Assembly: GCA_934661135.1 (NCBI GenBank)
Contig: CAKUJA010000004.1
Span: forward strand, 8,814-40,813
Direction: 5' to 3'
Length of the DNA: 32,000 nucleotides
Origin: an uncultured Oscillospiraceae bacterium
GTDB lineage: Bacteria > Bacillota > Clostridia > Oscillospirales > Oscillospiraceae
Positions 14,884 through 28,028 of this stretch are shown one piece after another. The position numbers and the translations under genes were made by a program. Numbering within the stretch: position 1 is the stretch's first letter; every line of letters begins with the position of its first letter. The notes under the pieces are model-generated. The model did no database searches and was not told the origin of the DNA. It saw only the letters and a program-made list of their open reading frames with translations.

Positions 14884-15639
14884 TCAGTGGGCGACCAGAT
14901 CCTTGATGACCTCGCCGGCGATAATCAGGCCGACGACCGGCGGCACGAAGGCCGTGGAGCCGGGGATGTCGCGGCGCTCGGTGCATTTGCGCGTCGTACC
15001 CGGCGGGCAGACGCAGTGGTTGCGGCAGGAGATGGTTCCGTCATCCATCGGGCGGATCGGCTTTTCCTGCGAGTAGACGACCTTCAGGCTCTTGATGCCG
15101 CGCTTGCGGCACTGGACGCGCATGACGCGCGAGAGCGGGCAGACGGACGTCTCGTAGATGTCGGCCACGCGAAAGGCCGTGGGGTCGAGCTTGTTGCCCG
15201 CGCCCATGGCGCAGATGATCGGCGTGCCCACCGCCTTCGCCTGCTCGACGAGGGAGAGCTTGCCGGAGACGGTATCGATCGCGTCGACCACGTAGTCATA
15301 CTGCGAAAAGTCGAACTGATCCTGCGTCTCGGGCAGGTAGAAGCACTTGTGCGTTGTGACCACGCAGTTGGGGTTGATGGCGTGGATGCGCTCCTCCGCG
15401 ACATCGACCTTGTATTTGCCGACGGTGGTGCGCAGCGCTATGATCTGGCGGTTGATATTGGTCAGGCAGACGCGGTCATCATCGATGAGGTCGAGCGCGC
15501 CGACGCCGGAGCGCGCGAGCGCTTCAACGGTATAGCCGCCGACGCCGCCGATGCCGAACACGGCCACGCGGCTGTTTGCGAGTTTCTCCATGGCCTCATG
15601 GCCGAGAAGCAGTTCGGTTCTGGAAAATTGATTCAGCAT
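14884..15639 (-). CDS. tcdA: tRNA threonylcarbamoyladenosine dehydratase (ThiF/E1-like, TcdA/CsdL family)
   Basis: 251 aa. Contains FGIGGVGG, the Rossmann motif of ThiF/MoeB-like proteins, with typical TcdA length and sequence style. Confidence 0.8.
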   Translation of the reverse strand: MLNQFSRTELLLGHEAMEKLANSRVAVFGIGGVGGYTVEALARSGVGALDLIDDDRVCLTNINRQIIALRTTVGKYKVDVAEERIHAINPNCVVTTHKCFYLPETQDQFDFSQYDYVVDAIDTVSGKLSLVEQAKAVGTPIICAMGAGNKLDPTAFRVADIYETSVCPLSRVMRVQCRKRGIKSLKVVYSQEKPIRPMDDGTISCRNHCVCPPGTTRKCTERRDIPGSTAFVPPVVGLIIAGEVIKDLVAH

Positions 15640-15648
15640 AAGACCATC

Positions 15649-16074
15649 CTAAATTACATAATTGTCTGCCTGGGGCGCGCTCATCAGGTCTGCCAGCGTG
15701 ATGCCCTCAAAATAGTCCTGCGTGAGCTTGTAATATCCCCGCCAGACCGGAAGCGTGCGGCACTCGGCCGCGCGGGTGCATGGCTCCGCGCCGCTTTGCA
15801 GGCAGGCTACGGGCGCAAGGCTGCCCTCGGCGATGCGCAGGATTTCCCAGAGCGTATACTGCTCCGGCTCGCGCGTCAGGCGGTAGCCGCCACCGATGCC
15901 GTGGGTGCTGGCGATCAGGCCGGCCGCTTTGAGCGGCGGCAAAATCCGCTCGACATATTTCAGTGAGATCTCCTGCCGGGCAGCGACCTCCTTCATCGGG
16001 ATATAGCTGCCGTTATAATGCTCCGCAAGATCGAGCAGGATGCGGATGGAGTACCTGCCTTTGGTTGAGATCAT
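15649..16074 (-). CDS. Rrf2-family transcriptional regulator (CymR/IscR-like, three Cys ligands)
   Basis: 141 aa starting MISTKGRYSIRILLDLA, with a winged HTH. Contains C-x7-C-x5-C (VACLQSGAEPCTRAAEC). GGAAAGGAG RBS. Stop codon is TAG. Confidence 0.9.
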   Translation of the reverse strand: MISTKGRYSIRILLDLAEHYNGSYIPMKEVAARQEISLKYVERILPPLKAAGLIASTHGIGGGYRLTREPEQYTLWEILRIAEGSLAPVACLQSGAEPCTRAAECRTLPVWRGYYKLTQDYFEGITLADLMSAPQADNYVI

Positions 16075-16093
16075 GGTGGCTCCTTTCCGGGTT

Positions 16094-16792
16094 TTACTTC
16101 AGGCGCTTGTCACACTTTGTGACGAGCTTCGTGCCGACGCTCTGGAAGATCTGCACGAGCAGAATCAGGAATACGACGGCAAGGGCCATGACGAGGTATT
16201 GATAGCGATAGTAGCCATAGTTGATGGCAATTTTGCCAAGACCGCCGCCGCCGATGATGCCGCTCATGGCCGAATAGCCAAGAATGGTGGTGACGGCGAT
16301 GGTGGCGTTGGAGATGAGCGAGGGGACGCTCTCGGGCAGCATGACCTTGACAATGATCTGAAGCGGCGAAGCGCCCATGCTCTGCGCCGTTTCGATGATA
16401 TTGGGATTCAGCTCGCGCAGGCTGGACTCGACCAGACGCGCAATGAAGGGGAACGAGGCGATGACCAGCGGGACGATGGACGCCGGTGTGCCGACGACCG
16501 TGCCCACGATCAGGCGCGTCAGCGGGAACACGAGAATCATCAAAATCAGGAACGGCACGGAGCGGAGCAGATTGATGATGACGTTCAGAACCCGCAGAAG
16601 CCACTGCGGAACGTGCAGAATGCGGTTATTTTCGCCCGCGACCAGCAGCACGCCGAGCGGCAGGCCAAGGACAATGGCAAAAAACGTGGACAGGAGCGTG
16701 ACATAGACCGTCTCCCAGATGGCAAGCGGGAACTGCTGAATCAGAATTTGCAGCGCGTTTTGAAACGTCTCAGACTGGAAGAACTCAGACAT
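16094..16792 (-). CDS. metI: Methionine ABC transporter permease
   Basis: 232 aa polytopic MetI-type permease. Overlaps the metN stop by 8 nt. Confidence 0.9.
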   Translation of the reverse strand: MSEFFQSETFQNALQILIQQFPLAIWETVYVTLLSTFFAIVLGLPLGVLLVAGENNRILHVPQWLLRVLNVIINLLRSVPFLILMILVFPLTRLIVGTVVGTPASIVPLVIASFPFIARLVESSLRELNPNIIETAQSMGASPLQIIVKVMLPESVPSLISNATIAVTTILGYSAMSGIIGGGGLGKIAINYGYYRYQYLVMALAVVFLILLVQIFQSVGTKLVTKCDKRLK

Positions 16793-17795
16793 ATGCGTCC
16801 ACCTCCTCTACAAAAATATCGGGAATTGTGCGCAGGTAGGTCTTGGCGCGCGCCAGCTCCTCCTCGCCGCCGGGAATGCCGAGCAGCATATTGCCGTAGG
16901 CCTTTTCGCCGATGCCTTTGGTCGACGCGCCGAGGATGCTGGCCGTAATGCCGCAGTCCAGCGCCATCTGAGCGATAAGGGGCGTCTTGGTGGCCTTGGC
17001 GCCATTGAACACAACACGGAGCATTTTGCCCTCATCGAACTTCACGACCGGCTGCTCATAGCCGTCGGGATACACAAGGCGCTTGGCCGCCTGCGACTGC
17101 GGCGCGGCAAAGACCTCGCTGACCTTGCCCTCCTCGGCAACCTCGCCGCCGTCGAGAATGGCGACACGCGTGCAGATCTGCTCGACGACGCTCATCTGGT
17201 GGGTGATCACGATGACGGTAATGCCAAGACGGTCGTGGATGTCGCGGATCAGGGAGAGGATGGACTGGGTGCTCTGCGGATCGAGCGCGCTGGTAGCTTC
17301 GTCGCAGAGCAGAATCTTCGGATGGGTCGCAAGCGCACGTGCAATCGCCACACGCTGCTGCTGGCCGCCGGAAAGCTGCGAGGGATAGCTTTTCAGCTTT
17401 TCACCAAGGCCGACAAGCTCCAGAAGCTCCGCCGCGCGCGCCATTGCTTCTGCGCGCTTCATGCCGGCCAGCTCCAGCGGGAAACAGACATTGCGCTGGC
17501 AGGTTCGCTGCATGAGCAGATTGAACCCCTGAAAGATCATGGTGATATTGCGGCGCTCCTCGCGCAGTTCCGCTTCGGTCAGGCTGGCCATGTCGCGGCC
17601 GTTGATGACAATTTTGCCGCTGGTCGGCCGTTCGAGCATATTGATGCTGCGCACGAGCGTACTTTTCCCCGCGCCGCTCATGCCGATAATGCCGTAGATT
17701 TCGCCGTCGGGGATGGTCAGCGTGATATTCTTCAGCGCTTCCACGGTTCCGCCCGACGTGGTAAAGGTCTTTGATAGGTTCTGAATCTCGATCAA
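16785..17795 (-). CDS. metN: Methionine ABC transporter ATP-binding protein (C-terminal NIL domain)
   Basis: 336 aa. Walker A GMSGAGKST, signature LSGGQQQR, Walker B ILLCDEATSALD, and a C-terminal NIL-type extension. Confidence 0.9.
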   Translation of the reverse strand: MIEIQNLSKTFTTSGGTVEALKNITLTIPDGEIYGIIGMSGAGKSTLVRSINMLERPTSGKIVINGRDMASLTEAELREERRNITMIFQGFNLLMQRTCQRNVCFPLELAGMKRAEAMARAAELLELVGLGEKLKSYPSQLSGGQQQRVAIARALATHPKILLCDEATSALDPQSTQSILSLIRDIHDRLGITVIVITHQMSVVEQICTRVAILDGGEVAEEGKVSEVFAAPQSQAAKRLVYPDGYEQPVVKFDEGKMLRVVFNGAKATKTPLIAQMALDCGITASILGASTKGIGEKAYGNMLLGIPGGEEELARAKTYLRTIPDIFVEEVDAYV

Positions 17796-17867
17796 TGCGA
17801 TCCCTCCAACAAAAGGGAATAACGCTGGCGGCGATTTGCTGGCAGCGTTATTCCCGTCATTTAGTTT

Positions 17868-18713
17868 TTATTTCAGTGCGTCCAGATTGCTCTGCTTGCC
17901 GCCGTAGAGACCCATCGGCTCCACGTGGACAACCAGAACGGAGACAAGGTGCGTACCGTTCTCGGCGTTGAAGTCCTCCAGATACGGAACGTGCTGGAAG
18001 TAGTTCGCGTCAATCTCGCCGCTCTCCACGACGTTGTTCGGCTGGACATAGTCGGTGAATTCCTTGATGTCGAGCGTGATGTCCTTCTCGGCCAGGATTT
18101 CCTTGGCGACGGAGAGGACCTCGGCGTGCGGGGTGGGCGTGGCAGCGACGGTGATGGTCTCGCCGGCGAGGGCGTCGTAGTCGACGGAGTCGTCATAGCC
18201 ATTGCCCGGGTTTTCCACGACGCTGATGACCGCGCCGCCGTAGTTCTCCGCGATATAATCTGCAACCTGCTGGCTGGCAACGGCCGCTTTGAGCGCCTTG
18301 ATCTTATCGGTTTCCTCGTTGCCTTCCTTGACGACCAGAACGTTGCCATACGCGGAAGCGGAGCCTTCGATCAGCAGAGAATCCGTCGTCGGGTTCAGAC
18401 CGGCGGGAATTGCGTAGTTGGAGTTGATGATGGCGTAGTCGACGTCCTGAAGGACATTCGGCACCTGCGCGGCTTCCACTTCCTTGAACTCGATGTTCTT
18501 CGGGTTCTCGGCGATGTCGTTGACGGTAGCAGTGATACCGGCGCCGTCTTTCAGCTTGATGTAGCCGTTGTCCTGAAGCAGGAGCAGCGCGCGCGCTTCG
18601 TTGGTCGCGTCATTCGGGACGGCAATGGTGATGGTGGACGATTTGCTGCCGCAGGCGGTCAGCGCGCCGATCAGCAGAACTGCAATCAGCAACAGAGCAA
18701 TATTCTTTTTCAT
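17868..18713 (-). CDS. metQ: Methionine-binding lipoprotein (NlpA/MetQ family)
   Basis: 281 aa. Signal peptide with lipobox LTAC followed by a MetQ-like body. Confidence 0.9.
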   Translation of the reverse strand: MKKNIALLLIAVLLIGALTACGSKSSTITIAVPNDATNEARALLLLQDNGYIKLKDGAGITATVNDIAENPKNIEFKEVEAAQVPNVLQDVDYAIINSNYAIPAGLNPTTDSLLIEGSASAYGNVLVVKEGNEETDKIKALKAAVASQQVADYIAENYGGAVISVVENPGNGYDDSVDYDALAGETITVAATPTPHAEVLSVAKEILAEKDITLDIKEFTDYVQPNNVVESGEIDANYFQHVPYLEDFNAENGTHLVSVLVVHVEPMGLYGGKQSNLDALK

Positions 18714-18803
18714 AATCGAAAAACCTCTCTTTTTGATTTATTGATATAATAATGATATATGTGGACAAATTTACATCAGGCGGTCACATTCGCCCGCGTT
18801 TTA

Positions 18804-18817
18804 GATTCGCGCGAATC
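18804..18817. promoter_or_regulatory. Perfect 14-bp palindrome GATTCGCGCGAATC upstream of metQ (candidate operator)
   Basis: Exact self-complementary sequence. Lies between the leader terminator and the metQ RBS. Confidence 0.35.
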
Positions 18818-18850
18818 AGCGCTTCAAAATCATGCAGCATAAACCCCTCC

Positions 18851-18891
18851 GAAAAAGAAATAACCAGGATGCCCCGATGGAGCTTCCCGGT
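18851..18891 (-). terminator. Intrinsic terminator inside the met operon leader (attenuator candidate)
   Basis: Minus-strand RNA is ACCGGGA-A-GCUCC-AUC-GGGGC-A-UCCUGGU followed by UAUUUCUUUUUC. Located about 30 nt after the leader ORF stop and about 140 nt before metQ. Confidence 0.6.
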
Positions 18892-18921
18892 AAAACACAC
18901 GTGAAATCAGTCGCCAAAGAT

Positions 18922-19014
18922 TCAGGCGACAGCCTCGGGAGAGCGCATCGGATCGGACGTGACGCAGCACATACGGCACATCTCCATAGGCATCATCGTG
19001 CAGGTCTTGGTCAT
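18922..19014 (-). CDS. 30-codon Met/Cys-rich leader ORF: MTKTCTMMPMEMCRMCCVTSDPMRSPEAVA
   Basis: ATG at 19014 with GGAAAGGAG ending 9 nt upstream; TGA at 18922-18924. 7 Met and 4 Cys in 30 codons. Sits between a promoter and a terminator upstream of metQNI. The stop codon lies inside the small hairpin GTCGCC-TGAATCTTT-GGCGAC. Confidence 0.5.
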   Translation of the reverse strand: MTKTCTMMPMEMCRMCCVTSDPMRSPEAVA

Positions 19015-19064
19015 CTCGGCGTTCTCCTTTCCTCGAAAATACACCTTCTTGGTAGGTTGGTCAT

Positions 19065-19093
19065 ATGATAGCGCCGCGCCAGCCATTTGTCAA
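19065..19093 (-). promoter_or_regulatory. Promoter TTGACA-17-TATCAT driving the met leader/operon
   Basis: On the minus strand the -35 hexamer is TTGACA (19093-19088) and the -10 hexamer is TATCAT (19070-19065), with exact 17-nt spacing. Confidence 0.6.
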
Positions 19094-19161
19094 GTGGTTT
19101 TTATGTTTTTTTTGCGCAGAAATCCAGTCTTTTGCTTTTTCACGCTTTTTTCATTTTGCTC

Positions 19162-19190
19162 TTGACAAACTGCCCCATATCCCTTATAAT
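19162..19190 (+). promoter_or_regulatory. Consensus promoter TTGACA-17-TATAAT for tRNA-Val
   Basis: -35 hexamer at 19162-19167 and -10 hexamer at 19185-19190. The tRNA starts 19 nt downstream. Confidence 0.7.
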
Positions 19191-19208
19191 AACTCTCGCA
19201 AACGCGAT

Positions 19209-19285
19209 GGACAGTTAGCTCAGCTGGTATGAGCACATGCTTGACGTGCATGGGGTCACAGGTTCGAGTCCTGTACTGTCCACCA
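19209..19285 (+). tRNA. tRNA-Val (anticodon GAC), CCA encoded
   Basis: Cloverleaf read by hand. Acceptor stem GGACAGT/ACTGTCC, D stem GCTC/GAGC, anticodon stem CATGC/GCATG with loop TTGACGT, T stem ACAGG/CCTGT with loop TTCGAGT, then ACCA. Confidence 0.95.
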
Positions 19286-19286: not shown

Positions 19287-19287
19287 A

Positions 19288-19316
19288 CCGCACTTCTTCG
19301 GAAGTGCGGTTTTTCT
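19288..19316 (+). terminator. Intrinsic terminator after tRNA-Val
   Basis: CCGCACTTC-TTCG-GAAGTGCGG followed by TTTTTC. Confidence 0.75.
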
Positions 19317-19491: not shown

Positions 19492-20589
19492 TCAGCCAAA
19501 CGCGGCGCAGACCTTTTGCGCGGTGCTTTGCTGGCGCGATTCGTGCTGATAATGGGTATAAACGCGCAGCGTCATATTGACCGTGGCGTGTCCTGCGAGA
19601 TATTGAATCTCCTTGATATCCAGCCCGCTCTCAAATAACCGTGTGATGTAGGTATGTCTGAGTCGGTGCGGATGAACGTGGAAATCCAACGTGCGGACAA
19701 CCTTGGAGTGCGGCGCGGTCGTCCAGAGATCGGCAGGATCATCAACCGTGCGGTTCTCGATCATTTGAAGCAGACACTTGAGACTGCTTTTGGAAAGCGG
19801 TTTTCCATTTTCCATGTGCAGCACATAAAGGCCCTTTGCGCCTTTGCGCTCCTTTACAAGCTCTGCAAACAGCGTGGGCGGTATCGGAATATCCCGGACT
19901 GCGGCAGAGGTCTTGAGGGTGTCGCTGACGGTCGTTTGCGCGTTTGTGAGCAGCGCATTGTGCCGAACCTGAATCACACCCGCAGGGAAATCAACGTCCG
20001 ACCACATCAGCCCGCAAAGCTCTCCGCGCCGCATACCGGTTTGAAGTGCCAACAGGCAGAAAAGATATGCTCGCGTTCCTCTCGTCGCGTCCAAAAGGCG
20101 CTGAGACTGTTCAGCGGTGAGTGGGATTTCTTCCTGCGTTGTCTTGCCGCCGATTCGCAAGGTTGCCGGGACTGGCGATTTTGCAATCAGGTTGTTATCC
20201 ACGGCTGCATTAAAAATCCCGCGAAGCACCTGCACCACCTTATTATTCAGGCTCTTGCTCATTTTGGATACAGACGCAATGACAAGCTGAATTTGTATCT
20301 GATTGACCTTTTTGAGCGGCACGTCCCGCAGATAAGGATAAATGTGATTGTTCAGCACGTTTTCAATAGCAAGCAAAGAGTTTTGCCGAAGATACGGCAC
20401 CTTATAGACGCGAAGCCAGAGCGCGGCATATTCTCCAAAAGTAGAGTTGTCGGAAACGTCAAGACCCGCTCCAATCTGTGTCAATAGCTCCTGTTTTTTC
20501 TGTTCCAATCCCTCCTGACTGACAGAACGAATCCACTTGCGCTTGCCGTTCGGAAGCGTGATGGAAGCCCTATAAAGTTTGTTTTTCAT
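19492..20589 (-). CDS. int: Tyrosine site-specific integrase
   Basis: 365 aa. N-terminal SAM-like domain. Catalytic Arg context MRRGELCGL, then HRLRHTYITRL (H-x-x-R) and LAGHATVNMTLRVYTHY (His, Tyr). GGAGAG RBS. Confidence 0.9.
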   Translation of the reverse strand: MKNKLYRASITLPNGKRKWIRSVSQEGLEQKKQELLTQIGAGLDVSDNSTFGEYAALWLRVYKVPYLRQNSLLAIENVLNNHIYPYLRDVPLKKVNQIQIQLVIASVSKMSKSLNNKVVQVLRGIFNAAVDNNLIAKSPVPATLRIGGKTTQEEIPLTAEQSQRLLDATRGTRAYLFCLLALQTGMRRGELCGLMWSDVDFPAGVIQVRHNALLTNAQTTVSDTLKTSAAVRDIPIPPTLFAELVKERKGAKGLYVLHMENGKPLSKSSLKCLLQMIENRTVDDPADLWTTAPHSKVVRTLDFHVHPHRLRHTYITRLFESGLDIKEIQYLAGHATVNMTLRVYTHYQHESRQQSTAQKVCAAFG

Positions 20590-20650
20590 TGTATTCTCTC
20601 CTTATGTAAGCAGCTACATAAGGCTATGGGAAATCATACGGTTTTTCTTG

Positions 20651-20684
20651 CGGCATGAAGCAGTTTCGCTTCGTGCCGTTTTTT
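20651..20684 (+). terminator. Plus-strand intrinsic terminator upstream of the element's rightward genes
   Basis: CGGCATGAAGC-AGTTTC-GCTTCGTGCCG (one G-U pair) followed by TTTTTT. It would stop read-through running antisense to int. Confidence 0.5.
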
Positions 20685-20733
20685 GTGCCTCTCCGTATAT
20701 GTACCATTATAACGACAGGAGCGAAAAAATCAA

Positions 20734-20742
20734 TGCTATAAT
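20734..20742 (+). promoter_or_regulatory. Extended -10 promoter element TGcTATAAT
   Basis: TG at 20734-20735 and TATAAT at 20737-20742, about 65 nt upstream of ATG 20807. Confidence 0.4.
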
Positions 20743-20806
20743 AGGGGCATGAAGCGTGAGGCAAGCAAGCTCACACAAAATAAATAACAAAAAGGAGATT
20801 AAACGT

Positions 20807-21223
20807 ATGAACGCAGATTTGATGAATGGAACGATTGTAATGTCGCAGAATGAGGCACGGAAAGCCGGTAGATTTGGGACAGACGAATATGAGATGTTGG
20901 CAAAGCTGATGCAGCAATTCCCCGCTTTCCGCATTGAAGTTGTGAAGCCCTCCGCAAAGAGAACAGACCATTTCAAGGGTCTGACACGTGCTTATATGAA
21001 ACAGTATGTTGAAAGCCACGATTCGAAGAAGCTGGCAGATTTCTATGCGCTGTGTGGTCTGGATGAGAGCGGAAAAAAGCAGGAATTGGCTGCGGCTGCT
21101 TCCTATGGCGAGCTGAAAATGTGGTTCCTTGAGCAGTTTCCTGAAATCGAGCAGATGAGTGAGAACATCAGAAGGATCATGGATAGAACACGAGAAGCAC
21201 GTGCGGCGCGGAAAGCGTCGTAA
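20807..21223 (+). CDS. Hypothetical protein, paralogue 1 of a tandem pair
   Basis: Start trimmed to MNADLMNGTIVM, with AAGGAG 9 nt upstream. Shares NG-IVM..EY..L....P....KGLT..YM..Y....WFLE.(F/Y)P with the next ORF. Confidence 0.7.
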   Translation: MNADLMNGTIVMSQNEARKAGRFGTDEYEMLAKLMQQFPAFRIEVVKPSAKRTDHFKGLTRAYMKQYVESHDSKKLADFYALCGLDESGKKQELAAAASYGELKMWFLEQFPEIEQMSENIRRIMDRTREARAARKAS

Positions 21224-21247
21224 GCCAGCAGGCAGGAGGAACATAAG

Positions 21248-21715
21248 ATGAAAGTCACGCTTAAAGTTGACCATGAGAATGGTCGTATTGTGATGAATAG
21301 AACATTTGCAAATCTGGCGGCCAATGTTTTCAGCGAAGAATATAAAATCTTGCAGGGAGCCCGGCAGGACTATCCGACTTACGTGGTAGTGCGCCGGACA
21401 ATCAAAAAGAACCCGAACCGTGAATGCTATCGCGGGCTGACCTATGACTATATGCGTGACTACATCAGCCGCTACGAGCCAGAAGAAACCCGTGAAAGCG
21501 TCTGCGCCGAGTTGGAGGACATGATCCAGATTTCCCGCTGTCACAGCCGCTGCAAGCGTTATCCTGTTATCAAACAGTGGTTCTTGGAAAAGTATCCGGA
21601 CGTAAAAAACTTTGGGATGGAAGCATTTGCGGAAGAAGAAACAGAGAACATCACAACGCTTTCTGCTCTTGCAGCCGATCCCGCGCCGGACGAGATCAAG
21701 GGCAAATCTGCCTGA
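21248..21715 (+). CDS. Hypothetical protein, paralogue 2 of a tandem pair
   Basis: 155 aa with AGGAGGAAC RBS. Collinear similarity to 20807-21223 (ENGRIVMNR.., RGLTYDYMRDY, KQWFLEKYPDV). Confidence 0.7.
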   Translation: MKVTLKVDHENGRIVMNRTFANLAANVFSEEYKILQGARQDYPTYVVVRRTIKKNPNRECYRGLTYDYMRDYISRYEPEETRESVCAELEDMIQISRCHSRCKRYPVIKQWFLEKYPDVKNFGMEAFAEEETENITTLSALAADPAPDEIKGKSA

Positions 21716-21807
21716 TTCGATTTTTTTAATAAAATATTATATAATATTTATAGAAAGTTAAGGGAAATCAAAACTTTCAATCAAAAAATGAAGGGTGGTG
21801 AACCATT

Positions 21808-22074
21808 GTGAACAAAGGATATGATTCGTTTTCCAAGCAGTTCTTTATTGACCTGCGCAAAAATGGAGACTATGCCTTGGCGAATATGTTAAAGAAATAG
21901 CTCTTTATGGACTATTTAAACGATTCCAAACGGATGGACGAGCTTGTATAGCGCGTTACGGATAAAGTAGAAGCTGATTTTACATCAGGCAAAATCAGCG
22001 TGACCCTCGAATCAAAGCCGTTGGACGATGCAATCGAGGAAATCAATAACCGTCTAAAAAACTTGGGGCAGTAA
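21808..22074 (+). pseudogene. 88-codon frame interrupted only by two in-frame TAG codons (pseudogene or amber read-through gene)
   Basis: GTG at 21808 follows AAGGGTGGTG. The frame reads VNKGYDSFSKQFFIDLRKNGDYALANMLKK-TAG(21898)-LFMDYLNDSKRMDELV-TAG(21949)-RVTDKVEADFTSGKISVTLESKPLDDAIEEINNRLKNLGQ-TAA(22072). Confidence 0.5.
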
Positions 22075-22099
22075 GCTGCTCCAAGAGAAAGGAAAAAGT

Positions 22100-22573
22100 A
22101 TGCCTACAACTGTACCAAATCAGCGGACGATCTGCGTTCATCGGGAAAAAGCCTCCGCAGATTTCCTAGGTATAAAAAATCGGAATTGGATGGCGGCATC
22201 CCGTGACCTTGGCGCACACGCGCTGCGGCTCTATCTGTATCTGGCTGCAAACGCAAATAACTATTCATTGGCGCTGTCGCCTGCTGCACTCTTGGAGGAA
22301 ATTGGAATGCCGCGTTCCACTTATCATGACCAATTCAAGGTGCTGGAATCCAAGGGCTATCTGATTCACAGAAGTGGAAATACATACGACTTCTATGAAA
22401 AGCCGCAGACGAGCCACGACATACAAGAAAAGAGTGAGTTGTCGTCCGGCAGTCAGGAAAAACCGCCGAACGTAGATTTTACACCGACGCAGGATACAGA
22501 AATAAATATTATAAATAAAAAAAATAATAACGAGGGAGTTTTAGAAAATGCAAGACCTGTGTTCAAATTTTAA
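22100..22573 (+). CDS. Winged-helix DNA-binding protein (possible replication/initiator-type)
   Basis: 157 aa. Contains LGAHALRLYLYLAANAN..LSPAALLEEIGMPRSTYHDQFKVLESKGYL, a wHTH pattern. The C-terminus is low-complexity. GAAAGGAAAAAG RBS. Confidence 0.55.
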   Translation: MPTTVPNQRTICVHREKASADFLGIKNRNWMAASRDLGAHALRLYLYLAANANNYSLALSPAALLEEIGMPRSTYHDQFKVLESKGYLIHRSGNTYDFYEKPQTSHDIQEKSELSSGSQEKPPNVDFTPTQDTEINIINKKNNNEGVLENARPVFKF

Positions 22574-22583
22574 AGAGACTTTT

Positions 22584-22781
22584 ATGAAGATAATGAAGGC
22601 TAAGAAAATGACAAATATTATCAACTTGATTATGGCCGAGACTGAACGAGATCGAGATAGAGAACACTACGAGGAACTGATGACAGCGGCATATAACCTC
22701 TGGGGATTTCTCAATTACGATCTGGGATGTGCTAACCCGCCAGACGAGATATGGGAAGGAAGCGGCAAGTTTGAATTTTGA
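22584..22781 (+). CDS. Small hypothetical protein
   Basis: 65 aa from MKIMKAKKM. The track start at 22548 overlaps the previous gene. RBS is weak. Confidence 0.4.
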   Translation: MKIMKAKKMTNIINLIMAETERDRDREHYEELMTAAYNLWGFLNYDLGCANPPDEIWEGSGKFEF

Positions 22782-23208
22782 GCAGCGAATCTATCAGTCC
22801 CTAAAGCGCAAGGGACTGGCAGCGCAATTTGAATGTGCGGGCATTTATGCGATCCTACTGGATGGCAAGATTGTTTACATAGGAAAGAGCGTCAATATCC
22901 TTGCGCGGATGGCATAGCATTACGCACAGCTTGCACAAGGCAAGGAACATAAGTACCGCATACTCGCTGAGGCTACGCGCAGCGGACGCAAAATGTGCTT
23001 CACTGTGCTTTACCGAGCCTAGCAGAGCGGCTATGACGCAATTACAGAAGAAATCGGTCAGAAGGAGGGCGAGTATATCCGCCTCCACAGACCGCCGCTG
23101 AATCAATAGATACCAAAAGAAGAAAACTGGCGTCAGTTTCAGACGAATCGAAATGTGCAGAGCATTACACTGTCTGAGCTGCTGGAATATATAGGAGAAC
23201 AAAAATGA
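22771..23208 (+). pseudogene. GIY-YIG nuclease frame with three in-frame TAG codons (pseudogene or amber read-through gene)
   Basis: One frame contains AGIYAILLDGKIVYIGKS..ARMA-TAG(22915)-HY....FTVLYRA-TAG(23020)-QSGYDAITEEIGQKEGEYIRLHRPPLNQ-TAG(23107)-IPKEENW...GEQK-TGA(23206). The GIY..YIG, Arg and E..YI....P..N motifs are all in register. The start is uncertain: TTG 22771 after GGAAGGAAG, or GTG 22729. Confidence 0.6.
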
Positions 23209-23486
23209 ATTGTGCAACTGAGAATAAAGTGATAGCTTTGATCCTGAAATATCCTTCGATGGAAAAGCTGCTGGACAACGTTTCTGATGAAATGCTGCAA
23301 GAAATGATAGAATGCTATGAATTGGAATTTCCGGAACCGCTGGATTTTAAAAACCGGGATACGCGCCGTGTGATCTGCTACAGTTTCATTCTGCGCCTAT
23401 ACACCCTGCGGCTCGACGATTGCATAGCAGAAAGCAATGCGTTATTTGAAATCTTGGATTCCTGCTTGGATTATGTACTGCTCTGA
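23205..23486 (+). CDS. Hypothetical protein
   Basis: 93 aa. ATG overlaps the preceding frame's TGA (ATGA). AGGAGAA RBS. Confidence 0.6.
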   Translation: MNCATENKVIALILKYPSMEKLLDNVSDEMLQEMIECYELEFPEPLDFKNRDTRRVICYSFILRLYTLRLDDCIAESNALFEILDSCLDYVLL

Positions 23487-23499
23487 GAAAGCGCGAAGT

Positions 23500-23543
23500 A
23501 AGAGGCGACAGCACTTTGATGCTGCTGCCTCTTTTGTTTTTTT
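23500..23543 (+). terminator. Intrinsic terminator ending the element's leftward module
   Basis: AAGAGGCGACAGCA-CTTTGA-TGCTGCTGCCTCTT (14-position stem with one mismatch and one G-U pair) followed by TTGTTTTTTT. Confidence 0.7.
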
Positions 23544-23740
23544 GTGTCCCGTAATTGAAAATGGAATTGCCATTTCAGAATTATCCAGCCACACCCAAAG
23601 AGGACAGGGCAAACAAAAAAGATTTCTCCTGAAATACACCCCCCTGTCCTCAAAAGGGTGCTGCGCGTTTGCTGAACAGAATTTGCCGTGTATCCGGCTG
23701 ATTTTTGGCTCTTGGAGCAGGCAGAAAAGTGTATAGGAAA

Positions 23741-23953
23741 TCAGTTGTTTTCTTGGACGTATTCAATCAGGTCGCCAGGCTGACATTCCAACAGTCCGCA
23801 GATACGTTCAATGTTCTCCCAAGACAGCCCTTTTCCCTCTCTCAGCTTTTGGAGCGTGGATTGGCTCAGTATGTTTTCTTTCCGCAGAACGTAAGTTGTA
23901 TATCCTTTTGCTTTCAGTGCCTCTAAAACGTCAATCTTAAATTGCATTGGCAT
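23741..23953 (-). CDS. XRE-family helix-turn-helix regulator
   Basis: 70 aa. Contains GYTTYVLRKENILSQSTLQKLREGKGLSWENIERICGLLECQPGDLIEY, a typical Cro/CI-type HTH. Confidence 0.85.
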   Translation of the reverse strand: MPMQFKIDVLEALKAKGYTTYVLRKENILSQSTLQKLREGKGLSWENIERICGLLECQPGDLIEYVQENN

Positions 23954-23993
23954 AAAACCGCCTCCTTTTCCATTGTCCTTATTTTATCATAGG

Positions 23994-24074
23994 ATATGCA
24001 CGAAAACAAGTGTACAAATATCACAGAAATATGCTCGAATTATCGTGTATATTGCCAATTGAATATGCACGAAA
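23994..24074. promoter_or_regulatory. Three phased direct repeats ATATGC(A/T)CGAA (candidate operators) in the divergent region
   Basis: Copies at 23994-24005, 24029-24039 (one mismatch) and 24063-24074, spaced 35 and 34 bp. The third lies in the spacer of the rightward promoter. Confidence 0.5.
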
Positions 24075-24087
24075 CATAGTCTATAAT
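24059..24087 (+). promoter_or_regulatory. Promoter TTGAAT-17-TATAAT
   Basis: -35 hexamer at 24059-24064 and -10 hexamer at 24082-24087, upstream of ATG 24147. Confidence 0.5.
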
Positions 24088-24146
24088 ATAGACAGTTGAT
24101 AGAGATACCCACCAAACAAATTACCATCCAAAAGGAGACAGACAAA

Positions 24147-24425
24147 ATGAGCAAGAATGAAATCGTGAGCATGATTGAAACCATGAATAACTACGACGAG
24201 CTGGCAAGCAAAGCCAAGGCAAAGGCGGACGCCATCCGCGACGCGCTGAAAGAAGAAATGCTGCGGCTCGACACCGAGGAACTGAACGCGGGCGCTTACA
24301 TCCTCCGCTACACCAACATCATCAGCAACCGGTTCGACACCACCACCTTCAAGCGCCTGTATGCCGACCTCTATAAGGACTTCACCAAGGCCGTCAGCAG
24401 CCGCCGCTTCACAGTCAGCTACTAA
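24147..24425 (+). CDS. Hypothetical protein
   Basis: 92 aa from MSKNEIVSM, with AAAGGAGA 8 nt upstream. The track start at 24096 lacks an RBS. Confidence 0.65.
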   Translation: MSKNEIVSMIETMNNYDELASKAKAKADAIRDALKEEMLRLDTEELNAGAYILRYTNIISNRFDTTTFKRLYADLYKDFTKAVSSRRFTVSY

Positions 24426-24483
24426 CAGAAAAAACAAGCTCCGCGGGCAGGAAATGCCCGTGGAGTAGAAAGGACAGAGAGAT

Positions 24484-24774
24484 ATGTTGATATTCGATGA
24501 ATTGTGGAACGGGGCATTCAGCCCGTGTGAGCACCGCTATGAGCGGAACAGCGACTATGATATTGTCAGCCGCCGCATCAGCGCCCAGATGGATGTGCTG
24601 CGTCAGAACGCCTCCAAGAGACAGAAAAAGGTGTGGGAAGCCTATGACCGCGACTTGGCCGAGCGCGAAAATCTGGAACAGCAGGACGCTTATTATCAGG
24701 GCATTCGGTTCGGCGCACGGTTTATGCTGGACGTGCTTCTGGAACAGCCCGGCAGCTATGAGGCGCGGCGATGA
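24484..24774 (+). CDS. Hypothetical protein
   Basis: 96 aa. AGAAAGGACAGAGAG upstream. ATGA overlap with the recombinase gene. Confidence 0.6.
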   Translation: MLIFDELWNGAFSPCEHRYERNSDYDIVSRRISAQMDVLRQNASKRQKKVWEAYDRDLAERENLEQQDAYYQGIRFGARFMLDVLLEQPGSYEARR

Positions 24775-25361
24775 AAGCAGGCTATGCCAGATGCTCCACC
24801 AACGAGAGCAGGCAGGACATTGAACGGCAGGTGCGGGAGCTGAAACAGGCGGGTGCGGAAACTGTATATCTGGAATATGAACACGGCGACGCGGCAGTCA
24901 AGGAACAGCTGTCCTTGCTTCTAGAACAGGCACAGGCGGGTGATACTATCATCACGTTAGAAGTCTCCCGCCTTGCCCGCTCGACCAAGCAGCTCTGTGA
25001 AATCATTGAAGCCATCAGCCGGAAGCACCTGTGTCTTGTCATTGTCGGCAGTATCACAATGGACTGCCGCAGAGGACACGCAGACCCGATGACAGAGGCT
25101 TTTTTGCAAATGGCAGGCGTGTTCAGTCAGTTGGAGCTTGCTATGATACGCGCAAGGGTGCGCTCCGGAATGGCAAATGCCAGAGCCAAGGGCAAGCAGA
25201 TCGGCAGACCGCACCTGACCAGCGATGACATTCCTGCATCGTTTCTGCGGCATTATCCGGCGTATAAGGGCAGACAGCTCAATATCAGTGAGTTCGCAAG
25301 GGTGTGTAATCTCAGCCGGACAACCGTTTATAAGTATATTGACCTTTTGGAGAATGGGTAA
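24771..25361 (+). CDS. Small serine recombinase (resolvase/invertase family)
   Basis: 196 aa starting MKAGYARCSTNESRQD (catalytic Ser context). Contains LEVSRLARS and a C-terminal HTH (ISEFARVCNLSRTTVYKYI). Confidence 0.9.
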   Translation: MKAGYARCSTNESRQDIERQVRELKQAGAETVYLEYEHGDAAVKEQLSLLLEQAQAGDTIITLEVSRLARSTKQLCEIIEAISRKHLCLVIVGSITMDCRRGHADPMTEAFLQMAGVFSQLELAMIRARVRSGMANARAKGKQIGRPHLTSDDIPASFLRHYPAYKGRQLNISEFARVCNLSRTTVYKYIDLLENG

Positions 25362-25363
25362 AA

Positions 25364-25423
25364 CAAGTCATACATTTAACAGATATAGGGAAATGATTAC
25401 CTTTCTGTTGGATGTATGACTTG
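25364..25423. promoter_or_regulatory. Long hairpin / inverted repeat right after the serine recombinase gene
   Basis: CAAGTCATACAT (25364-25375) and ATGTATGACTTG (25412-25423) form a perfect 12-bp inverted repeat, with inner AACAG/CTGTT pairing. This may be a convergent terminator or a recombinase site. Confidence 0.45.
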
Positions 25424-25460
25424 AATTTGTTTATCCTGCTGGCGTTTCAGCTGGTTCTGA

Positions 25461-26213
25461 TTATTCTGACGTCGTATAACCTTCTGGGAGGACTACTGTT
25501 CCTGAAACTTCAAGGACATCAATCTTAAACCGAGGCTCCAAGTTTGGAGTATAGGATGTCCATTTGTAAGTTTTATAATGCATACTCTCACTTATTGTCC
25601 AATTTCCGTCATATGGTAGTGTGATTTTGAAATCTTTGTAGTTCCTCCATCCGCGGACTGTCCCATTTGACCAATAATCCTCATCTTGAACATTCCCAGT
25701 ATCAAATTCCCAACCGGAATTACAATCGTATTGATTTGCTTCTTCGTCCCACGTTGAGTGTATACTCATCGAAACTCGCAGCTTGATTGAAACATTTTCG
25801 AAATGACTATTCGTTTGATTTATAGTGGATATCGTTGCTGTTCCTGAACCGCTATAGTCCCAATACACATGGAAAAACGGATCGAATTCACGATCGGTCT
25901 TATAATCATTTGATGATACTTCAATTTTTAAGTAGTCTTGAATGTTTTCAGTTGTAAGTTTAATTGGCTTTATCTTTTTAAGCTGTGCTTCTGCTTCCTT
26001 AAGTGTTGAATAATTTTCGACACTATCCTTTTCTTCTTTACTCAATGCATCATACGCTTTCCTTGCATCCGTAATCTGCGTTTCACTATCCAGCGTCACT
26101 TCGCCTATGGATGCAATAGACTTTTCTACAGACTTCACCGCTTTGCTTTTTCCACAGGCGCACAGCGACAAAAGCATAACTGCACATAGCACCAATGCAA
26201 CAGCCTTTTTCAT
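25461..26213 (-). CDS. Lipoprotein of unknown function (AT-rich cargo gene)
   Basis: Start trimmed to MKKAVALVLCAVMLLSLCAC/GKS (signal peptide plus lipobox), with GGGGTGG upstream. The C-terminal region is rich in Trp and Tyr and looks beta-rich. Confidence 0.8.
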   Translation of the reverse strand: MKKAVALVLCAVMLLSLCACGKSKAVKSVEKSIASIGEVTLDSETQITDARKAYDALSKEEKDSVENYSTLKEAEAQLKKIKPIKLTTENIQDYLKIEVSSNDYKTDREFDPFFHVYWDYSGSGTATISTINQTNSHFENVSIKLRVSMSIHSTWDEEANQYDCNSGWEFDTGNVQDEDYWSNGTVRGWRNYKDFKITLPYDGNWTISESMHYKTYKWTSYTPNLEPRFKIDVLEVSGTVVLPEGYTTSE

Positions 26214-26226
26214 CCCTATTCCACCC

Positions 26227-26376
26227 CTATTTTGTAATTTCATTGAATTTTAACGCTTTTTCGCATAACTGGCGGACGGCCTCAACAAACGAGGAAATCC
26301 CTTTTTCTTTTTGATACGCAACAATTCTTCTAATCAACTGTGCATCCTTATCACCAAAAGTCACACCTTTGCCCAT
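26227..26376 (-). CDS. Small ribbon-helix-helix-like protein
   Basis: 49 aa, below the track cutoff: MGKGVTFGDKDAQLIRRIVAYQKEKGISSFVEAVRQLCEKALKFNEITK. GGAGGT lies 7 nt upstream. Stop codon is TAG. Sits directly upstream of the lipoprotein gene. The RHH call is by pattern only. Confidence 0.5.
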   Translation of the reverse strand: MGKGVTFGDKDAQLIRRIVAYQKEKGISSFVEAVRQLCEKALKFNEITK

Positions 26377-26508
26377 TGTAAATACCTCCATTTGCGCTTT
26401 TCTTTTCTCTTGGCAATTCTATTATATAACATTTTGTTTTATATTTCAATATAACAAACTGTTTTCTCTATACTTTTCTGTGAAACTTTCACAAAGGAGC
26501 ATAGGAAA

Positions 26509-26733
26509 ATGTATAGACGCATCCGGGATTTGCGCGAAGACTGCGACCTGTTTCAAAAAGACCTTGCCGAGTATTTACAGTGTTCGCAGGTCTGCTATTC
26601 CCACTATGAGATGGGCAAGCGCGACATTCCAACAGACGTTTTAATCAAGCTGGCAAGCTTCTATCATACCAGCACCGATTATCTCTTGGGGCGAACGGAT
26701 GAAAAGCAGGCGTATCCCGCATCCAAGAGCTGA
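26509..26733 (+). CDS. XRE-family helix-turn-helix regulator
   Basis: 74 aa: IRDLREDCDLFQKDLAEYLQCSQVCYSHYEMGKRDIPTDVLIKLASFYHTSTDYLLGR. AAAGGAG RBS. Confidence 0.85.
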   Translation: MYRRIRDLREDCDLFQKDLAEYLQCSQVCYSHYEMGKRDIPTDVLIKLASFYHTSTDYLLGRTDEKQAYPASKS

Positions 26734-26739
26734 AACACC

Positions 26740-26768
26740 AGCCGCAGCACAAAACCGCTGCGGCTTTT
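26740..26768 (+). terminator. Intrinsic terminator after the XRE gene
   Basis: AGCCGCAGC-ACAAAACC-GCTGCGGCT followed by TTTCC. An extended -10 element TGcTACAAT follows at 26778-26786. Confidence 0.55.
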
Positions 26769-26807
26769 CCGTATTTGTGCTACAATGAATAAAACCGGAT
26801 GTAGAGG

Positions 26808-27956: not shown

Positions 27957-27986
27957 AAAGAAAAAGTAAAGCTGTTTGAAAGACAG

Positions 27987-28028
27987 AAAAAGGTTGCAGA
28001 AAAGATGTTATCTTCCTGCAACCTTTTT
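27987..28028. terminator. Strong hairpin terminator at the right end of the element
   Basis: AAAAAGGTTGCAG...CTGCAACCTTTTT, a perfect 13-bp stem with extra inner AAGAT/ATCTT pairing. Confidence 0.6.

Follow-up and report, generated by a model that had tools for sequence, protein, structure and literature searches.

The metQNI operon considered here, which encodes a methionine transporter, lies on the minus strand of a stretch of DNA of 32,000 nucleotides (nt) from an uncultured Oscillospiraceae bacterium (assembly GCA_934661135.1, contig CAKUJA010000004.1, positions 8,814 to 40,813); we call this whole stretch the window. The operon is preceded by a leader of about 345 nt, and the region that we studied is the front part of this leader. 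We propose, with a probability of roughly three in four, that it is a ribosome-mediated transcription attenuator which senses the supply of charged tRNA-Met and tRNA-Cys; sequence comparison and folding models both point to it. A short open reading frame (ORF) dense in methionine (Met) and cysteine (Cys) codons, which we call sORF1, is followed by an intrinsic terminator. This anatomy is conserved throughout a family of leaders, it is linked exclusively to genes of methionine uptake or synthesis, and its antiterminator co-varies with its terminator. A preliminary description of this DNA, made from its letters, had suggested leader-peptide attenuation with Met and Cys as the regulatory codons. 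The conserved ORF, its terminator and the co-varying antiterminator, together with the absence of matches to known RNA families, now support that suggestion, by computation only.

Anatomy of the leader

The preliminary description had listed a promoter, a Shine-Dalgarno (SD) sequence, an ORF of 30 codons with seven Met and four Cys, a block of 11 codons of which 8 are Met or Cys, a hairpin around the stop codon and a terminator, and each of these is present on the minus strand. Together with the pairing regions discussed below, the features are as follows (positions are those of the window).

19065 to 19093, minus strand: sigma-70-type promoter TTGACA-17-TATCAT, with 11 of 12 consensus matches
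19041 to 19056, minus strand: small inverted repeat or hairpin CCUACC-aagaa-GGUGU at the 5' end of the transcript, found by comparing sequences by eye
19024 to 19032, minus strand: SD of sORF1, GGAAAGGAG, from the sequence
18922 to 19014, minus strand: sORF1, the leader peptide ORF of 30 codons (ATG at 19014, TGA ending at 18922), MTKTCTMMPMEMCRMCCVTSDPMRSPEAVA, from the sequence and family conservation
18964 to 18996, minus strand: regulatory codon block or region 1, codons 7 to 17 (MMPMEMCRMCC), 8 of 11 being Met or Cys, from the sequence, the ORF scan and folds
18935 to 18952, minus strand: region 2, the predicted 5' strand of the antiterminator, UCCGAUGCGCUCUCCCGA, inside the 3' part of sORF1, from duplex energy and covariation
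18910 to 18930, minus strand: spacer hairpin GUCGCC-N9-GGCGAC of 6 bp with the stop codon of sORF1 (18924 to 18922) in its loop, from folding
18874 to 18889, minus strand: region 3, the predicted 3' strand of the antiterminator, CGGGAAGCUCCAUCGG, which comprises the 5' arm of the terminator, its loop and the first bases of its 3' arm, from duplex energy and covariation
18852 to 18890, minus strand: intrinsic terminator, a stem-loop of 12 pairs (18890 to 18864, -16.2 kcal/mol) and the U-tract UUAUUUCUUUUU (18863 to 18852), from folding

The 5' untranslated region (5' UTR) ahead of the SD of sORF1 measures about 44 nt. At the position equivalent to 19041 to 19056 relatives carry CUACC-N4-7-GGUAG (compared by eye), and within the SD they keep GGAAAGGAGAA. 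An in-frame ATG at 19086 lengthens sORF1 to 54 amino acids (18922 to 19086) in the mechanical list of ORFs, and the gene callers used on the public contig (L093, 175 to 339) chose the same start. This ATG sits between the -35 and -10 boxes and hence is probably not transcribed. As relatives keep the SD-led form of 30 to 44 amino acids, the longer version is probably a spurious extension, and many entries of the sORF1 family in public databases bear similar N-terminal extensions.

Conservation of the leader ORF

We fetched 80 genomic loci by similarity to MetQ, all of them from metagenome-assembled genomes of Clostridia (Oscillospiraceae, Ruminococcaceae, Acutalibacteraceae, Lachnospiraceae, Anaerovoracaceae and Christensenellaceae). 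A short ORF dense in Met and Cys was present about 100 to 350 nt 5' of metQ in 29 of them; with four others obtained through protein-cluster look-ups, this makes 33 distinct metQ leaders, the window's included. Across these 33 leaders the ORF is led by an SD, is 25 to 44 codons long and contains 6 to 10 Met or Cys per 11 codons. The SD and the ATG are kept in 32 of the leaders, the last one being truncated by the end of its contig. The peptides have little in common except an N-terminus of the MKK type and a core such as MMxMCMCxMCM, while the remainder drifts. This is the outcome of the comparison that the preliminary description had recommended: relatives retain a short upstream ORF enriched in ATG, TGC and TGT codons while the sequence of the peptide changes.

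The density of these codons is peculiar to the leaders. Six-frame scans of the window and of 92 loci, which amount to about 1 Mb if the two strands are added up, gave ORFs with 7 or more Met or Cys per 11 codons in metQ leaders only. Four other ORFs reached 6 per 11, three of them without an SD and one with a weak SD-like match.

An exact-sequence look-up of the window's peptide of 30 amino acids returned no record. A profile search led by a relative of 44 amino acids, in a collection of 5.8 billion proteins, added 96 protein clusters, all of them unnamed, which have the core MMMEMCMCxMCM and no Pfam domains. The four clusters whose genomic context was looked up all lie directly 5' of genes for Lipoprotein_9, ABC_tran/NIL and BPD_transp_1 proteins, i.e. 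of metQ-metN-metI. The outer neighbours vary across these four loci, those of P0094 and P0017 having upstream neighbours in common. Similar modules of an ORF and a terminator precede metY, the gene of O-acetylhomoserine sulfhydrylase, in three metagenomic leaders.

An antiterminator co-varies with the terminator

A strong hairpin followed by a U-tract is found 16 to 60 nt past the stop codon of sORF1 in nearly all 33 leaders. The preliminary description, which had not fully worked out an antiterminator by hand, had proposed to look for a sequence competing for the 5' arm of this terminator. Such a competitor, in covariation with the terminator, exists: the segment 18952 to 18935 (region 2) can pair with the segment 18889 to 18874 (region 3). 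The window has 11 nt between the last regulatory codon and region 2 and 10 nt between region 2 and the stop codon, and the duplex has an energy of -20.9 kcal/mol, to be compared with -13.5 kcal/mol for dinucleotide shuffles (z = -3.0). For the 33 leaders, the best duplex between the sequence after the block and the 5' arm plus loop of the terminator has a mean z of -1.95 relative to dinucleotide shuffles, with z < -2 in 15 of them.

The 3' part of sORF1 bears a conserved nucleotide motif, typically UCCGAUGyGCUyUCC, which is complementary to the 5' arm and the loop of the terminator (GGRAAGC..CAUCGGA). The frame in which the hexanucleotide UCCGAU is translated varies between leaders, the residues being either F-S-D or F-P-M. 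This means that the constraint acts on the RNA. In the half of the motif that pairs with the loop, one finds compensatory variants: CCGAUG/CAUCGG, UCAAAUG/CAUUUGA, UUUUCAG/CUGAGA, CCAAA/UUUGG and CAUGACCGA/UUGGUCAG.

The covariation was assessed without any alignment by pairing the post-block region of every leader with the terminator 5' arm of every leader and by comparing cognate with non-cognate pairs, p-values being obtained by permutation. The cognate advantage is 2.94 kcal/mol for all 33 leaders (30 residuals negative, p<=5e-5) and 2.74 kcal/mol for the 26 that remain when near-duplicates are removed (23 negative, p<=5e-5); the leader loci being mutually related, these p-values describe co-variation across the family and not independent events. 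Control segments of equal length gave no significant advantage over the 26 leaders, whether taken upstream (0.46 kcal/mol, 17 negative, p=0.12) or downstream (0.33 kcal/mol, 12 negative, p=0.22). A count in a fixed register, on an unfitted MAFFT alignment, agrees with this result: 73.9% of the cells pair, as opposed to 63.3% and 57.1% when the register is shifted by one column. Both sides change in 8 of the 13 pairs, and 6 of 500 shuffles reach the observed covariation score.

The proposed switch

We infer that ribosomes stall at the Met and Cys codons, that ribosome and RNA polymerase are coupled, and that the response goes in the following direction. Transcription would begin downstream of the promoter (19093 to 19065), and a ribosome would load at the SD and translate the 30 codons of sORF1. 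Under an ample supply of both charged tRNA-Met and charged tRNA-Cys, this ribosome would clear the block (18996 to 18964), cover region 2 and reach the stop codon; region 2, once covered, could not pair with the 5' arm of the terminator, the terminator (18890 to 18852) would form and most transcripts would end at about 18852. If either charged tRNA were scarce, the ribosome would stall in the block with its 3' edge just short of region 2, which would pair with region 3 before the 3' arm of the terminator is made, and the polymerase would read through into a second leader ORF (sORF2, see below) and metQNI-rrf2-thiF. In the untranslated RNA of the window, region 2 would be held by the Met/Cys block, which gives a layout of four regions. 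According to the folding model, the spacer hairpin (18930 to 18910) should draw regions 2 and 3 together. With the footprint of a ribosome as it is generally known, region 2 starts just past the 3' edge of a ribosome having the last regulatory codon in its A site and ends inside the footprint of a terminating ribosome.

We folded the nascent RNA, taken up to the loop of the terminator and before its 3' arm, for different positions of the ribosome. When the ribosome is stalled in the block, 24 of the 33 leaders have 60% or more of the 5' arm of the terminator paired upstream; for the window this arm is 82% paired upstream, 73% being paired to partners inside sORF1. When the ribosome is at the stop codon, pairing of at least 60% is predicted in 7 leaders only and there are no partners inside sORF1, the latter being a consequence of the mask. 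The minimum-energy nascent fold of the window's free RNA has the Met/Cys block paired to region 2, and this corresponds to the classical layout of 1:2, 2:3 and 3:4 pairings. Hence the 5' arm of the terminator is left unpaired in the window without a ribosome, because the block holds region 2. For 22 of the 33 leaders, the structure predicted for free RNA is the antiterminator and not the 1:2 pairing.

Several points weigh against an attenuator of this kind. RNAalifold, applied to a MAFFT alignment of truncated leaders, found no consensus helix, which is due to bulges that move the register between leaders. The folding energy of the window's leader as a whole is ordinary (z = -0.85). Several relatives have more than 20 nt between the end of region 2 and the stop codon, so that a terminating ribosome would leave region 2 uncovered and timing must do the work there. 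In equilibrium folds of the full leader with simulated ribosome masks, the terminator wins in 28 to 33 of the 33 leaders in every state, which means that the switch must be kinetic. In attenuators the choice is made during transcription, and dominance of the terminator in equilibrium folds of the full leader is usual. A shortage of Met would also hit initiation, which in the predicted free-RNA state of the window would favour termination. Finally, RNA polymerase outruns the ribosome in Bacillus subtilis, and this is unfavourable for ribosome-mediated attenuation. Leader-peptide attenuators do function in other Firmicutes (PMC5794164, PMC5864092, PMC4191407).

Search for known RNA families

The preliminary description had recognised neither an S-box nor a T-box in the leader, and our searches agree with it, over the leader and over its relatives. 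The covariance models of Rfam 15 were run at gathering score across the window and, permissively, with E<=10 over 18600 to 19250. At gathering score, neither SAM-I, SAM-IV, the T-box (RF00230) nor any other Rfam family matches in the leader, and the sole match in the window is a transfer RNA (tRNA). The permissive search over 18600 to 19250 returned three noise matches only (a yeast small nucleolar RNA, a fly long non-coding RNA and a Brucella small RNA), far under their cut-offs. Likewise, no S-box, T-box or other such family was found by the Rfam models among relatives, where 40 metQ loci and 20 metY/metQ loci were searched. The MetQ clade of the window is devoid of S-box and T-box elements altogether; it is not the case that they merely went unrecognised. 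The same search showed two tandem copies of the Clostridiales-1 RNA (RF01699) at 11126 to 11452 of L124, a contig with a metY leader; they are far from the leader and unrelated to the finding.

Alternative explanations

Known riboswitches being absent from these loci, another sensor is needed, and one may think of a switch made of RNA only, in which a protein (like TRAP, which binds triplet repeats) or a small ligand (as for a new riboswitch class) would bind the AUGUGC repeats and the conserved downstream motif and thereby select the antiterminator or the terminator, the ORF being incidental. The (AUGUGC)n block can pair with itself by means of G-U pairs and, in most leaders, is predicted to fold into a hairpin of its own, and the reading of UCCGAU in two frames shows that part of the ORF is constrained as RNA. 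We nevertheless regard such a switch as unlikely, since the features that are kept are those of a translated ORF. Wherever enough upstream sequence is available, the leaders keep an ATG in the frame of the Met/Cys triplets and the ORF stops ahead of the terminator, its length and its flanking residues being free; a strong SD is the rule (of the type GGAG/GAGG or better in 29 of 32); and the ATG triplets hold a phase of 3 nt even where the AUGUGC repeat breaks, e.g. in ATGATGATGGAAATG and ATGCCGATG. Both TGC and TGT are used for Cys, the spacing between the block and region 2 fits the footprint of a ribosome, and no conserved structured element resembling an aptamer is present 5' of region 2.

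It is very improbable that sORF1 makes a functional micro-protein rich in Met and Cys (metal-active, redox-active or a store of sulfur), co-expressed with the transporter, and that the hairpin is an ordinary leaky terminator between genes. The 96 public protein clusters with a recognisable core motif and the MKK- N-terminus would suit such a peptide, and peptides rich in Cys and Met can bind copper or other soft metals. Conservation is however limited to the Met/Cys block and the RNA motif, the C-terminal half varying both in frame and in sequence, and the conserved C-terminal nucleotides co-vary with the terminator and not with features of the peptide. The ORF always lies 16 to 60 nt before a leader terminator, was never seen as a free-standing gene and has no Pfam match.

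The architecture of ORF, antiterminator and terminator would be identical in a leader sensing general translation stress or a ribosome-targeting compound (like the erm, bmrB and vmlR leaders) instead of the supply of Met and Cys, and most of the leader-ORF attenuators studied experimentally in Firmicutes respond to antibiotics (PMC4191407, PMC4335068). The genes regulated here are those of methionine uptake (metQNI) and homocysteine synthesis (metY) and not of resistance, the density of Met and Cys codons is the sole feature conserved family-wide, and the unrelated sORF2 in the same leaders likewise ends in Met/Cys codons, so that we give little credence to a stress sensor.

Lastly, a chance ORF beside an unrelated terminator is refuted by the comparative data: an ORF of 30 codons alone proves nothing, ORFs being abundant at 60% G+C, but 8 Met or Cys in 11 codons (about 0.5 expected) have nothing comparable elsewhere in about 1 Mb, and the ORF occurs at the same place in 33 leaders, to which the 96 protein clusters are to be added.

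A second leader ORF

The preliminary description had counted about 140 nt between the terminator and metQ. This distance is correct, as the ATG of metQ (18713) is 138 nt past the end of the U-tract, but the stretch is not a plain spacer: it houses a second conserved leader ORF, sORF2, the SD of which begins directly after the U-tract.

18784 to 18850, minus strand: sORF2, with its SD GGAGG (18850 to 18846) and an ORF of 18 codons (18840 to 18784), MLHDFEALIRANLKRGRM followed by the stop, ending in CGA-AUG-UGA (18792 to 18784), an ending of the form CGA-AUG-UGN being invariant in the family, from the sequence and the family
18711 to 18733, minus strand: translation-initiation region of metQ, with the SD AGAGAGG (18730 to 18724) and the ATG (18713 to 18711), from the sequence

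The ending of sORF2, CGAATGTG, is found in 40 of 85 metQ leaders, at -57 to -147, for a background of 0.016 per 300 nt, and sORF2 occurs in loci both with and without sORF1. G never follows CGAAUGUG, the next base being A, C or U. The triplet that precedes an isolated ATGTG[ACT] is CGA in 30 cases out of 33, and in 18 out of 18 when the motif is searched for by translation. CGA is otherwise rare: it accounts for 1 of the 55 arginine codons of the window's operon and, among relatives, for 4% in the neighbouring genes. The sORF2 has one Met codon and 0 to 4 Cys codons, each typically after this rare codon. Where there are extra Arg-Cys pairs, they are again CGA-UGU, 12 of 13 being in frame (counted by eye). 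In the core peptide xFExL(V/L)RxN(F/Y)RFGRM, 372 codon differences are synonymous and 363 non-synonymous, and changes at the third position dominate; the same nucleotides form the proposed anti-SD. Judging from these codon differences, the core peptide is under purifying selection upstream of a fixed, putative stall site.

We scanned metagenomes with a degenerate pattern for N-(F/Y)-R-F-G-R-M, which gave 120 DNA stretches, 80 of them kept as loci. In these 80 loci, the gene after sORF2 is that of O-acetylhomoserine sulfhydrylase, metY, in 54 (TIGR01326, 643 bits), of MetQ in 16 and of MetN in 2. We conclude that sORF2 serves as a leader in a methionine regulon, before metY and metQ across gut Clostridia.

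The last 33 nt of sORF2 before its Met codon (e.g. AAUUUCCGUUUCGGnCGAAUG) are complementary to the downstream ribosome-binding region (e.g. CAUUUaCGAAAgGGAAAU). Between the 3' part of sORF2 and the downstream initiation region the cognate advantage is 1.44 kcal/mol for 68 non-redundant leaders (p<=5e-5), with p=0.054 and p=0.42 for the controls. The window's own pairing between sORF2 and the SD of metQ is weak (-5.5 kcal/mol), so that control of the SD by sORF2 is to be understood at the level of the family. If a ribosome paused on sORF2 with CGA in the P site and AUG in the A site, it would cover exactly the stretch which, in relatives, pairs with the downstream SD. Judging from the comparison of leaders, sORF2 probably adds translational control of metQ, and by analogy this would fit translational attenuation of the erm or cat kind, driven by hungry Met/Cys codons. 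The inefficiency of I-A wobble pairing at CGA, reported by Curran in 1995, may sharpen the pause on sORF2.

A hairpin showing CGAAUGUG in its loop was also considered and was rejected: it is inconsistent among leaders, with a stem score of 6.3 vs 4.9 for shuffled flanks. By eye, CGAAUGUG pairs with a downstream CACAUUC in few leaders only. In the spacer after sORF2, where a Rho-utilisation signature was sought, the sequence is A-rich and C exceeds G modestly (median C/G of 1.3).

More tentatively, and as a possibility that we hold to be a little short of an even chance, gut Clostridia without S-box or T-box on their methionine genes may run a "Met/Cys ribulon", made of two unrelated leader-ORF modules used alone or in tandem: the attenuator with sORF1, and sORF2 with its peptide xFExLVRxNFRFG-R-M-(C/stop) and a CGA-AUG-UGN sensor. 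The inosine-A wobble of the tRNA-Arg in the P site would then render translation of the Met or Cys codon that follows unusually dependent on the charging of its tRNA, and a ribosome waiting on sORF2 would uncover the SD of metY or metQ.

Repeats are frequent around the promoters of these leaders. In 21 of 59 unique sORF2 leaders an operator-like inverted repeat, CCTATTGACAnnGTAGG, overlaps the -35 box, and a CCTAC-N-GTAGG repeat often follows it at the start of the transcript. The window's own operator-like repeats, CCActtgacaaaTGG (19097 to 19083, within which the -35 box falls) and CCTACCaagaaGGTGT, are weaker; clearer ones are found in L096, L107, L115, L169 and L171. Judging by their sequence, these repeats could allow a transcription factor to act on the same regulon; the copy at 19041 to 19056 could be a stabilising 5' hairpin or a second operator. 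Many of the metQ loci that lack sORF1 (L002, L004, L009, L011, L013, L017, L020, L041-L043, L050, L054 and L066) have the gene of a LysR-type regulator, co-directional with metQ, which ends about 100 to 250 nt upstream. After this gene come a palindrome, e.g. GTTATAG-N7-CTATAAC, and a promoter, then sORF2 in some loci and metQ directly in others. This palindrome resembles the MET box of streptococcal MtaR/MetR.

The operon and its surroundings

14884 to 18713, minus strand: operon of metQ (18713 to 17868), metN (17795 to 16785), metI (16792 to 16094), the gene of an Rrf2 regulator (16074 to 15649) and a ThiF/TcdA-like gene (15639 to 14884), from Pfam and NCBIfam

According to Pfam and NCBIfam matches, the products are a MetQ/NlpA lipoprotein, an ATPase of the ABC (ATP-binding cassette) type with a NIL domain, a permease, an Rrf2 regulator and a ThiF/TcdA-like protein. 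The Rrf2 protein scores under the equivalog cut-offs of IscR and CymR. The best match of the ThiF protein is TcdA (tRNA cyclic-t6A synthase), under its cut-off; it is curious to find a gene of this tRNA-modification-like kind inside an operon under proposed control by tRNA charging.

The gene of a tRNA-Val(GAC) (19209 to 19285, plus strand) is divergent from the methionine leader, with a perfect promoter TTGACA-17-TATAAT at 19162 to 19190 and a terminator at 19287 to 19310. It is adjoined by a tyrosine-recombinase/phage-integrase gene (19492 to 20589, minus strand), and about 8 kb (20000 to 28000) have a G+C content of 45 to 47%, as against 58 to 63% in the rest of the window. From the sequence, the tRNA gene, the integrase and the stretch of low G+C look like an integrated mobile element at a tRNA.

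Significance

Leader-peptide attenuation is textbook matter for Trp, His, Leu, Thr, Phe and Ile/Val. To our knowledge, methionine is the conspicuous exception among the amino acids with leader-peptide attenuation. Model bacteria control their methionine genes through MetJ, S-box riboswitches, T-boxes or MtaR/MetR, and a common argument is that starvation for Met also blocks the initiation of the leader peptide. If our reading is true, a conserved Met/Cys attenuator in abundant, mostly uncultured gut Clostridia would fill this gap, and it would explain the control of metQNI and metY in a large clade without any known riboswitch. It would also extend the "ribulon" idea from the cysteine genes of mycobacteria to a second phylum and to a second amino acid. 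If moreover the Met/Cys ribulon exists as outlined above, it would be the first methionine-sensing leader-peptide system, with a specific inefficient codon pair as a conserved regulatory element.

The sORF2 was unexpected in the same leader and deserves study by itself. Placed in tandem and ending in CGA-AUG-UGN, it leads to a testable hypothesis of codon-pair-dependent amino-acid sensing. Both sORF1 and sORF2 are simple to annotate; at present they are overlooked or labelled "hypothetical protein".

Comparison with known systems

A methionine-codon attenuator, a leader ORF of metQ or metY and a Met-sensing arrest peptide were all looked for in the full-text literature and no prior description was found, most subscription journals being outside its coverage, so that absence is unproven. 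The preliminary description had been aware of no Met-codon attenuator for metNIQ either, and none turned up in the searchable full texts or in Rfam.

Classical leader-peptide attenuators comprise trpL, hisL, leuL, thrL, pheL and the ilv leaders of Proteobacteria and those of ilv-leu and hisS/hisZ in some Firmicutes (PMC1183508, PMC2965389, PMC5794164, PMC5864092); in Firmicutes they are rare but documented (PMC2965389, PMC5794164, PMC5864092). On sequence grounds sORF1 and its terminator are best classed as a classical attenuator in logic and in layout. As in the classical cases, a short ORF led by an SD has a cluster of codons for the amino acid that the operon supplies and a terminator precedes the first structural gene; the predicted 5' strand of the antiterminator lies just past the regulatory codons and would compete for the 5' arm of the terminator; and a 1:2 pairing is predicted in the window. 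Besides the clade, the novelty would lie in a specificity for Met plus Cys and in the target, which is an importer and sometimes metY. Unlike in classical attenuators, the regulatory codons are those of Met and Cys together, the operon is that of a transporter and the host is an uncultured bacterium of the gut Clostridia. The antiterminator moreover engages the loop of the terminator too, and in most relatives the free RNA is predicted as antiterminator, not as a 1:2 protector.

S-box (SAM-I, i.e. S-adenosylmethionine) riboswitches and Met T-boxes govern metNPQ/metQNI and metY in Bacillus, Clostridium and Lactobacillales (PMC1262725, which cites the S-box literature, and PMC2965389). Our leaders have in common with them the genes, the position of the leader and an output by terminator and antiterminator. 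The signal of S-box and T-box leaders is SAM, or an uncharged tRNA which binds the RNA. Here, in contrast, the leader is without aptamer or tRNA-binding structure, the proposed sensor is the translating ribosome and the proposed signal is the charging of tRNA.

The polycysteine short ORFs of mycobacteria, which are leaderless and constitute a "Cys ribulon" (Canestrari et al., bioRxiv 10.1101/834739), had been predicted earlier (PMC1262725). Like them, our ORFs are upstream short ORFs with Cys codons before sulfur-amino-acid genes, and several operons use the same device. In the Cys ribulon, ribosomes stalled at hungry codons prevent the formation of an RNA structure that shuts off expression, and sORF2 may act alike through sequestration of the SD. 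The mycobacterial ORFs have runs of consecutive Cys codons and act on translation with no terminator, whereas sORF1 has Met and Cys interleaved and is accompanied by a terminator and a co-varying antiterminator. Both sORF1 and sORF2 have an SD and a 5' UTR, which sets them apart from the leaderless starts of the mycobacterial ORFs.

Lastly, sORF2 resembles leaders that act by stalling or arrest in its short conserved peptide and in its stall point, predicted at or next to the stop codon, from which a stalled ribosome would alter access to the downstream RNA. The TnaC family has variants with either a stop or a sense codon after the stall codon, as sORF2 does. Among these leaders are those of translational attenuation by stalling (ermC, cat, cmlA) and the arrest peptides TnaC and SpeFL (PMC8429421, bioRxiv 10.1101/604074). 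Unlike in systems of the ermC or TnaC type, the proposed signal for sORF2 is the supply of Met and Cys, the stall context is fixed at the level of nucleotides (CGA-AUG-UGN) and no ligand is implied.

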